Shown here in pieces: positions 61,158 through 61,235 of a stretch of DNA of 64,000 bases. The notes beneath the pieces are model-generated. The model saw only the letters and a program-made list of their open reading frames with translations. It did not search any database and was not told the DNA's origin. How positions within the stretch are numbered: position 1 is the stretch's first letter; each line of letters opens with the position of its first letter. The DNA comes from a virus. Location: positions 1 to 64,000 of IMG/VR virus record IMGVR_UViG_3300045988_171898; one strand, written 5' to 3'. Both the position numbers and the translations under genes were made by a program.

Positions 61158-61235
61158 ATGTATGATGATTATGATGATTATGATGATTATGATGATTATG
61201 ATGATGAATATTATATGGGAGATTATTTAGATTGA
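61158..61235 (+). CDS. 25-aa microprotein MYDDYDDYDDYDDYDDEYYMGDYLD encoded by a 9-bp tandem repeat
   Basis: Strong TAAGGAG ribosome-binding site 7 nt upstream of the ATG. (GATGATTAT)x5 encodes (YDD)5. Lies directly between the promoter and nrdF. Confidence 0.4.
   Translation: MYDDYDDYDDYDDYDDEYYMGDYLD

Follow-up and report, generated by a model that had tools for sequence, protein, structure and literature searches.

A slippage-prone Tyr/Asp-repeat micro-ORF is a candidate first cistron of nrdF in phages from human-associated metagenomes

We analyzed 64,000 nucleotides (nt) of a viral genome from IMG/VR (positions 1 to 64,000 of IMGVR_UViG_3300045988_171898; "the window" is this whole stretch). 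Just 5' of nrdF, which encodes the β subunit of a class Ib ribonucleotide reductase (RNR), lies a 25-codon open reading frame (ORF) that contains five perfect copies of a 9-nt unit and that encodes an acidic peptide rich in tyrosine. Its conservation across related phages indicates that this micro-ORF is a true small gene rather than a by-product of the repeat. On balance, we favor the view that it is a translated, hypervariable, slippage-prone first cistron that is coupled to nrdF.

Small ORFs that fall below the thresholds of gene callers are rarely validated; here, we relied on a comparison of dozens of metagenomic phage genomes. Across these genomes, a Tyr/Asp-repeat ORF for 16 to over 66 amino acids (aa) appears to be kept by selection while slippage changes its length faster than point mutation does. 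The micro-ORF is tied to class Ib nrdF, with which it shares a promoter and at whose start it ends or overlaps, and it is interchangeable with a gene for a 68-aa acidic protein. In the searchable literature, we found no description of a Tyr/Asp-repeat leader ORF upstream of an RNR gene, and nothing relevant on an upstream ORF (uORF) or a repeat before the RNR genes of phages.

A perfect repeat within a short ORF

The original prediction for this locus described a tandem repeat within a micro-ORF, preceded by a promoter and a ribosome-binding site and separated by 16 nt from nrdF, and all of these are present where they had been placed (Table 1). The micro-ORF ends with TGA at 61233-61235 and the ATG of nrdF is at 61252. 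According to Tandem Repeats Finder (TRF), the array is (TATGATGAT)x5, with a period of 9, 5.0 copies, 100% matches, and a score of 90, which is the top score among the 153 rows for the window. The longest perfect run with period 9 is 45 nt, whereas none of 50 shuffles had a run of more than 22 nt. For the 18-mer GATGATTATGATGATTAT, 0.37 matches with up to 3 mismatches would be expected; within the window, its matches cluster only at the array. The encoded peptide, MYDDYDDYDDYDDYDDEYYMGDYLD, has a net charge of about -13.5, with 8 Tyr and 13 Asp/Glu, and six of its residues 2-11 are Asp.

Table 1. Features of the window that are discussed in the text
Feature	Position	Strand	Basis or remarks
Micro-ORF	61158-61235	+	25 codons, translation MYDDYDDYDDYDDYDDEYYMGDYLD followed by stop
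9-bp array, an in-frame coding variable-number tandem repeat (VNTR)	61161-61205	+	TRF and comparison of relatives
Micro-ORF Shine-Dalgarno sequence (SD), AAGGAG	61142-61147	+	Read from sequence; 10 nt 5' of the ATG
Predicted sigma-70-type promoter, TTGACA-17-TATAAT	61091-61119	+	12/12 match; TG of extended -10 at 61111-61112
A+T-rich hairpin (10 bp stem, 4 nt loop), then a T run	61061-61088	+	Terminator-like end of the upstream Sequestin-family gene
nrdF SD, GGAGGA	61238-61243	+	8 nt 5' of the nrdF ATG, 2 nt 3' of the micro-ORF stop
nrdF, class Ib RNR β subunit	61252-62253	+	Pfam PF00268 (Ribonuc_red_sm), E = 4.6e-68
Sequestin-family gene, 68 aa	60863-61069	+	Immediate upstream neighbor; PF21825, E = 1.7e-13
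NrdH-like glutaredoxin	60622-60849		Upstream of nrdF; profile match
Dihydrofolate reductase (DHFR)	52879-53382
tRNA gene cluster with its promoters: Met, Leu(TAA), Ser(GCT), Tyr(GTA), Leu(TAG)	54480-55108	+	Two perfect consensus promoters (54480, 54552), then the five tRNA genes
Six consensus promoters	59908-59936, 61091-61119, 62452-62480, 54480-54508, 54552-54580	+	Sequence match
	8488-8460	-	Sequence match (sixth of the six)

Related loci carry three types of the micro-ORF

We found related loci with a NrdF probe (against IMG/VR and metagenomes), with a DNA probe for the terminator, and by exact look-ups of the NrdF protein and of Sequestin, the product of the gene upstream. The exact look-ups used the window's own Sequestin and NrdF as well as five Sequestin variants from a protein search. 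This led to 73 loci that share the terminator, the promoter, and the SD; in these, AAGGAG[T/A]TGAT(T)n is followed by ATG or GTG. In 60 of the loci, the first cistron is complete and free of Ns; these 60 represent 33 distinct DNA alleles. The related loci lie on phage contigs of about 100 kb, with 23% G+C, from many human-associated metagenome studies.

The window's own type of micro-ORF, type A, encodes M(YDD)nE[YF]YMGDYL[D/G/Y] and then stops. In complete contigs, copy numbers n of 2, 3, 4, 5, 6, 7, and 8 were found in 3, 9, 14, 7, 2, 1-2, and 1 loci, respectively. (There is one locus with 7 copies, or two if we include L144, which the counting pattern misread.) Another contig ends inside the array after at least 11 units, and several scaffolds have N gaps within the array. 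Type B starts with GTG and encodes MYVDYDY(D..)EYL(DYL)nDYIEYMEDERL, with 28-52 aa and two separate arrays. Type C resembles type B but uses TAC and GAC codons. Types B and C can be described jointly as MY[VD]DYD...EYL(DYL)nDYIEYMEDERL, and their stop codon always overlaps the start codon of nrdF as ATGA. In two type C loci (L175 and L176), a higher-order unit of 27 nt, GATGACTACGATGACTACGATGAATAY (encoding DDYDDYDEY), is repeated at least 6 times, which gives an ORF of at least 66 aa. This ORF is rich in C-ending codons, which are otherwise rare in the genome.

The micro-ORF behaves as an independent module: it is retained with all three alleles of nrdF, which are 76-86% identical to each other and share an identical C-terminal tail (...E[VI]LDDIGGLF). 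The point at which similarity between these alleles breaks down is exactly the SD of nrdF. Outside of this clade of phages, DNA that could encode (YDD)4 turned up in IMG/VR only in unrelated acidic tails of larger ORFs or in non-coding frames. A search of protein databases with a 45-aa type B sequence gave two spurious low-complexity matches only, and the micro-ORF has no counterpart in Pfam or PHROG.

In some sister phages, another gene fills the slot. For example, in L027 (2802-3008), the same promoter and SD precede a gene for a 68-aa acidic protein. This family comprises 22 protein clusters (P0001-P0022) that are 78-97% identical and non-repetitive, and the stop codon overlaps the start of nrdF. 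The protein's net charge is -13.4, which is close to that of the micro-ORF peptide, and AlphaFold predicts a two-helix hairpin (pLDDT 80). It has no match in Pfam, NCBIfam, or PHROG and no significant fold match in BFVD. The 68-aa protein in the slot shows no similarity to Sequestin, which also has 68 aa (hhalign probability 0.2%; also by Pfam).

The two occupants of the slot might be related. The most conserved core of the 68-aa family is LDDLDYIE, which resembles LDYLDYIE of types B and C (19/27 at the DNA level, P ~0.02-0.03). Local DNA alignments of the micro-ORF's tail with the 68-aa gene gave P ~0.01-0.04, and ungapped 27-mers gave P ~0.02-0.07. These values are of marginal significance, and homology between the micro-ORF and the 68-aa gene is suggested rather than established. 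Overall, the 68-aa family shares with the micro-ORF the promoter, the SD, the place before nrdF, the overlap with the nrdF start, and the net charge, and with types B and C a core like LD[DY]LDYIE; it differs in being non-repetitive and in its predicted helical hairpin.

The reading frame is kept while the repeat changes length

The Tyr/Asp frame is open in 60 of 60 complete copies. These copies span three diverged types and both start codons, and none has a frameshift or a nonsense codon. (The sole out-of-frame copy is that of L184, an old scaffold in which an N falls exactly on the junction.) All changes in length are multiples of 3, though at least 4 units have expanded (6, 9, 9, and 27 nt). 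The original prediction would have been refuted if copy number varied neutrally along with disruption of the frame; this is not the case, as every complete copy is in frame. There are also synonymous variants that preserve the peptide, such as TAC in L001, GAC units in L151, and TAC instead of TAT across the DYL array of type C.

We also compared the conservation of the non-repeat tail to that of the neighboring genes, by counting parsimony steps on a neighbor-joining tree of the adjacent genes (recombination blurs this tree). The 36-nt tail of type A has 6 steps across 36 loci, or 0.17 per site. The third codon positions of the Sequestin and NrdH genes have 0.76-0.96 steps per site, while their first and second positions have 0.17-0.32. 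By this measure, the tail is about 5-fold more conserved than the synonymous sites of the neighboring genes, and it is under purifying selection. Similarly, about 9% of single-base changes in the micro-ORF would create stop codons, and by a rough estimate, several nonsense alleles would be expected if the ORF were neutral; we saw none.

Other reading frames across the repeat do not behave this way. On the minus strand, a frame with a His-Asn repeat is open at 61156-61338. It had been dismissed as an artefact, and we agree: no minus-strand ORF of 40 aa or more is present at this place in L002. The +1 frame (MMIMMI...) is open in type A but meets an early stop in types B and C (MLIMIMMNI, then stop). 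We rejected both as genes, as neither is conserved.

How quickly the array changes can be seen from phages that have identical NrdF and identical Sequestin proteins and yet have 4 versus 5 copies of the unit. This implies that arrays change faster than point mutations accumulate, which would explain why the units are perfect. Gains and losses of whole 6-, 9-, or 27-nt units are the pattern that would be expected from replication slippage or unequal recombination. The suggestion that the repeat is prone to slippage is thus borne out, with copy numbers that range from 2 to at least 11. The related suggestion of a contingency locus that switches expression on and off does not hold: the units of 6, 9, and 27 nt are all multiples of 3, and they lie downstream of the promoter. 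With such units, no frameshift can turn off the ORF, and only the length of the peptide and of the leader varies.

A second tract near the start of the ORF may be prone to slippage as well. Between AAGGAG and the start codon is a run of T that varies in length (T5, T6, T8, and T9, in L028, L131, L163, and L169), which shifts the spacing from the SD to the start codon between 9 and 13 nt. This could alter initiation at the micro-ORF.

Alternatively, the micro-ORF might be what decay has left of the 68-aa gene, or of some other first cistron, with an inherited SD and start codon and an array that changes neutrally. Its apparent conservation would then reflect the overlapping initiation region of nrdF and recent common ancestry. 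We think that this is unlikely. The same promoter, SD, and slot do hold the 68-aa gene in L027 and in the 22 protein clusters, and the weak similarity of the tails to this gene fits with decay. So do the frequent stop-loss variants, and a perfect repeat implies rapid turnover rather than selection on each unit. However, we estimate (roughly) that there have been about 0.8-1 substitutions per neutral site over the sampled tree, which, given the share of changes that create stops, is hard to reconcile with 0 nonsense alleles among 60. The decay scenario also does not account for array units that are multiples of 3 in all three diverged types, or for the Tyr/Asp frame being the only one that is open in all types.

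Coupling of the micro-ORF to nrdF

The strong promoter and the strong SD, together with a conserved ORF whose stop codon lies on or beside the initiation region of nrdF, lead us to infer that the micro-ORF is translated and coupled to nrdF. The promoter is kept in all relatives, including those with the other first cistron. Under the model that we favor, the promoter, the micro-ORF, and nrdF would form a two-gene unit with nrdF as the second cistron. Ribosomes would translate the micro-ORF and terminate at the SD or the start codon of nrdF, and synthesis of NrdF would be translationally coupled to the micro-ORF, much as it would be coupled to the 68-aa gene in the sister phages.

The repeat could matter for this coupling in two ways. 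First, acidic nascent chains at the N terminus can abort or pause translation, and acidic uORFs can control initiation downstream (bioRxiv 10.1101/2021.02.02.429294, PMC8092293, PMC11282234). The nascent chain from the micro-ORF is acidic and Asp-rich at its N terminus, and this feature, along with the repeat number, may set the share of ribosomes that reach the end of the ORF. Second, the repeat RNA (AUGAUGAUU)n is predicted to pair with itself via A-U and G-U pairs, and the predicted stability increases from -23.6 kcal/mol for 5 units to -37.7 kcal/mol for 8 units. If either effect operates, then copy number would be a graded setting for nrdF: the array might act as a heritable rheostat for the output of nrdF, not as a switch.

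Several observations weigh against this model. First, nrdF has a good SD of its own (GGAGGA, 8 nt, ATG), so it may initiate independently of the micro-ORF. Second, a weak hairpin between the 3' end of the micro-ORF and the start of nrdF is predicted with the window's type of nrdF allele (-8 kcal/mol) but is absent with the L002 type (-2.5 kcal/mol). A hairpin that is predicted only with the window-type allele is not a general feature, and we set aside the idea of a conserved hairpin that sequesters the ribosome-binding site (RBS). Third, bulky residues such as Tyr are reported to counteract the destabilization of ribosomes by acidic runs (bioRxiv 10.1101/2021.02.02.429294), which may offset the effect of the micro-ORF's acidic run. 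Fourth, more distant relatives of nrdF (58-78% identity) do without such an ORF and have other genes or nrdE directly upstream. Fifth, the third codon positions of the micro-ORF's tail are as conserved as the first two, which implies that the constraint may act partly on nucleotides (the initiation region of nrdF) and not on the ORF. (This is also a point in favor of a decayed remnant.) Finally, of all sites in the micro-ORF, the stop codon varies the most, with 5 parsimony steps (TGA>TTA, TAA, TGG), which suggests that no exact geometry of termination is required. Across the relatives, the distance from the stop codon to the nrdF ATG is +16/+15, +3, -4, -8, or -35 nt.

A bolder version of the model is that the array is a dial for RNR: the repeat number would set the amount of NrdF, and the polyanionic peptide, once released, would itself act on the class Ib RNR. 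Its target would be, for example, the metal loading of NrdF or the site on the α subunit where the β tail docks. We consider this combination doubtful. If it were true, then by either route a widespread lineage of human-associated phages would have a novel sort of accessory element for RNR, one that evolves by in-frame slippage.

Might the peptide have a function of its own?

Another explanation is that the micro-ORF encodes a disordered, polyanionic, Tyr-rich microprotein that is produced together with NrdF and that matters in its own right, by virtue of its overall charge and its aromatic residues. Possible roles are those of a decoy for a host protein that is basic or that binds nucleic acids, of a minimal replacement for the 68-aa protein, or of a factor associated with NrdF (either for handling metal or as a mimic of NrdF's C-terminal tail). 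We regard a function of this kind as a tentative possibility. Tyr and Asp/Glu (with or without Leu) and a periodicity of 3 residues are kept in types A, B, and C despite the different DNA units, and the synonymous variants also fit with selection on the peptide, as does the near-equal charge of the two occupants of the slot. The LDYLDYIE of types B and C resembles the core of the 68-aa family, and the motif E.LD[DY][IL] occurs just twice in the ~19,900 aa of the window's open frames, with one of these being the α-binding tail of NrdF (EVLDDI). Furthermore, the neighboring Sequestin is an anti-defense sponge, which implies that this region carries small accessory genes.

On the other hand, the peptide's length varies about 4-fold, and its C terminus tolerates D>G and D>Y changes as well as extensions of 4-17 residues. 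The protein search found no homolog of known function. The resemblances between motifs were noticed post hoc, and the homology to the 68-aa gene is marginally significant. As for mimicry of the β tail, the peptide does not have the hydrophobic GGLF end that defines this tail. The NrdF alleles end with ...E[VI]LDDIGGLF, while the micro-ORFs share at most [DE]YLD[YL] with this and end with ...DYLD or ...MEDERL. We rejected this candidate.

Might the leader be a sensor or a binding site?

The micro-ORF might also report on the status of translation, if its dense NAU codons for Asp and Tyr sense a signal that is passed on to nrdF by coupling. Candidate signals are Mg2+ or ribosome stability, energy charge (via an ABC-F protein similar to EttA), queuosine on tRNA-Asp and tRNA-Tyr, and the supply of the phage's tRNA-Tyr. 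In line with this idea, 20 of the 25 codons are GAT or TAT, the N terminus is Asp-rich in all three types, and the phage encodes tRNA-Tyr(GTA) and tRNA-Leu(TAA). There are precedents in acidic leader ORFs and in the queuosine-dependent decoding of NAU codons (PMC10570037, PMC11703503). However, GAT and TAT are common in this genome (57 and 48 per 1000 codons, respectively), so the micro-ORF's codons are not intrinsically slow. We found no conserved alternative RNA structure at the leader and no genes of the queuosine pathway in the parts of the genome that we examined. The bulky Tyr residues are predicted to counteract destabilization, and any link between such signals and nrdF is speculative. 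A sensor seems quite improbable to us.

It is extremely unlikely, in our view, that the repeat acts as DNA or RNA, either as a series of 9-bp sites for a protein (an operator, iterons, or a Fur-like box) or as a structured leader RNA. The array's position, at about +35 to +80 from the predicted start of transcription, would suit such a role; the predicted stability of the repeat RNA rises with copy number; and the window's leader RNA folds with z = -2.5. But there can be anything from 2 to at least 11 copies, the units of types B and C are different ones, and the array is absent from phages of the L027 type, which have the same promoter. The 18-mer occurs nowhere else in the window, and there is no Rfam match from 60000 to 62500, just chance matches below the threshold. 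We compared the 9-mer by eye to consensus sequences for the Fur box, the NrdR box, the DnaA box, and iterons. We rejected all of these readings, since relatives that share the promoter lack the array or have a different one.

Genomic setting

The micro-ORF's upstream neighbor matches PF21825, and in this locus, only that gene does; the micro-ORF is too short and repetitive to score. This Pfam family, with the old label crAss001_48, is now named Sequestin, and experiments have established it as an anti-Thoeris sponge for 3'cADPR. A protein search found 98 close variants of the window's Sequestin, in phage contigs of about 100 kb. The hairpin at the end of the Sequestin-family gene folds at -13.3 kcal/mol (z = -2.3), and its sequence is unchanged in 9 aligned relatives. 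(A scan for a terminator consensus passed over it, with fewer than 3 G-C pairs in the stem.) Farther upstream, beyond the NrdH-like gene, are an RNA ligase-like gene and a DinG-like helicase.

The window's nrdF is uninterrupted. Its assignment to class Ib is borderline by the NCBIfam model for this class (TIGR04171), with 354.7 bits versus a cut-off of 355. Genes for a flavodoxin-like NrdI (Flavodoxin_NrdI) and for thymidylate synthase lie about 5 kb past the end of the window, as read in L128 (11471-13612), and the class Ib accessory genes are scattered over this phage genome, not clustered. We did not find nrdE among the window's ORFs or in the next 10 kb downstream, so the phage may use a distant or host-encoded α subunit. 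A pattern-based scan with a distant NrdE gave no match on this phage's contigs, but a divergent copy could escape such a scan.

In seven relatives (L035, L144, L165, L173, L183, L185, and L186), nrdF is called as a fragment of 100 aa that is followed by a gene with a faint match like I-HmuI/NUMOD. In L035, the match to NrdF begins at residue 101, after structured-looking non-coding DNA. This arrangement suggests a mobile intron with a homing endonuclease that is polymorphic within this population of phages.

Perfect copies of TTGACA-N17-TATAAT are far more frequent in the window than expected (6 versus 0.09), and each has the TG of an extended -10. These promoters point to a host outside of the Bacteroidota with a canonical sigma-70, and they suggest that the region for replication and nucleotide metabolism has many short, independent transcription units. 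As for the tRNA genes, they serve three of the main residues in the family of micro-ORFs (Tyr, Leu(TTA), and Met), yet these are the commonest codons of this A+T-rich genome anyway.

One ORF (46473-48293, minus strand) encodes a terminase-like protein that has 29-30% identity with those of the Fusobacterium phages Fnu1, FNU2, FNU3, and phiKSUM. The region of structural genes includes a single ORF for 4590 aa (23257-37029, minus strand). This large ORF and the old name of PF21825 had led to the label of a crAss-like phage, which we withdraw: the terminase-like protein is distantly related to those of Fusobacterium phages, and the Pfam family has been renamed. Among GenBank phages, there is no megablast match to the window, and the best matches to NrdF are at most 52% identical. 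We found no prophage copy in 185,579 species genomes.

Implications

If it is true that the repeat number tunes NrdF or that the peptide acts on RNR, then this would be a new route by which phages adjust nucleotide supply, and the locus would lend itself to the study of in-frame VNTRs in leader ORFs. If the micro-ORF is merely a tolerated spacer cistron, then it is a warning that a perfect repeat beside strong signals can be a conserved ORF, and one that is overlooked by annotation pipelines.

Comparison with known systems

The original prediction raised the possibility of a leader peptide that senses Tyr- or Asp-tRNA. In the attenuators trpL, hisL, and pheL, the leader contains codons for the sensed amino acid, terminator and antiterminator hairpins follow, and the operon makes or charges that amino acid. 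The micro-ORF shares the basic layout: a promoter, then a short ORF in which codons for one or two amino acids follow each other, then a structural gene. Unlike these leaders, it has no terminator or antiterminator in 61158-61252, and the gap of 16 nt is filled by the strong SD of nrdF. Because there is no room and no terminator, we can exclude a classical attenuator of the trp/his type. Also, nrdF is not a gene for the synthesis of Tyr or Asp, and the micro-ORF's codons are common ones.

The product can be compared to phage proteins such as T7 Ocr and gp5.9, which are small and strongly acidic and act as mimics of nucleic acid or of the tail of a partner, and to the inhibitory peptides that have been derived from the C terminus of the RNR β subunit. 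The micro-ORF's product is also small and very acidic and would be expressed from a strong promoter, and its [DE]-Y-L-D resembles the E-V-L-D-D-I of NrdF's tail. In contrast to these, no folded structure is expected for type A, and the hydrophobic C terminus of the β tail is absent.

In its mode of evolution, the array resembles slipped-strand contingency loci and coding VNTRs. Its units are perfect, its copy number varies between otherwise identical genomes, and assemblies break or have N gaps within it. For a contingency locus to switch on and off, the unit must not be a multiple of 3, or else the repeat must alter the spacing within a promoter. In contrast, the units of the micro-ORF (6, 9, or 27 nt) never frameshift it off, and the product that varies is a cytoplasmic micro-peptide encoded 5' of a metabolic gene, not a surface protein.

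The closest functional parallels are mgtL and mgtQ of Salmonella and E. coli and the acidic sequences that depend on EttA. Like the micro-ORF, these are short ORFs 5' of a structural gene, with acidic residues near the N terminus, that end at or near the downstream RBS (the micro-ORF's stop codon is 2 nt before the SD of nrdF) and that can set initiation downstream. The micro-ORF is much longer, its acidic run is repetitive and interleaved with bulky Tyr, and its copy number is polymorphic. It is also in a phage, it precedes nrdF rather than a gene for a Mg2+ transporter, and it was not found to have a conserved stem-loop that sequesters the RBS. Overall, the element would be closest in function to a coupling uORF such as mgtQ, while it evolves like an in-frame VNTR.

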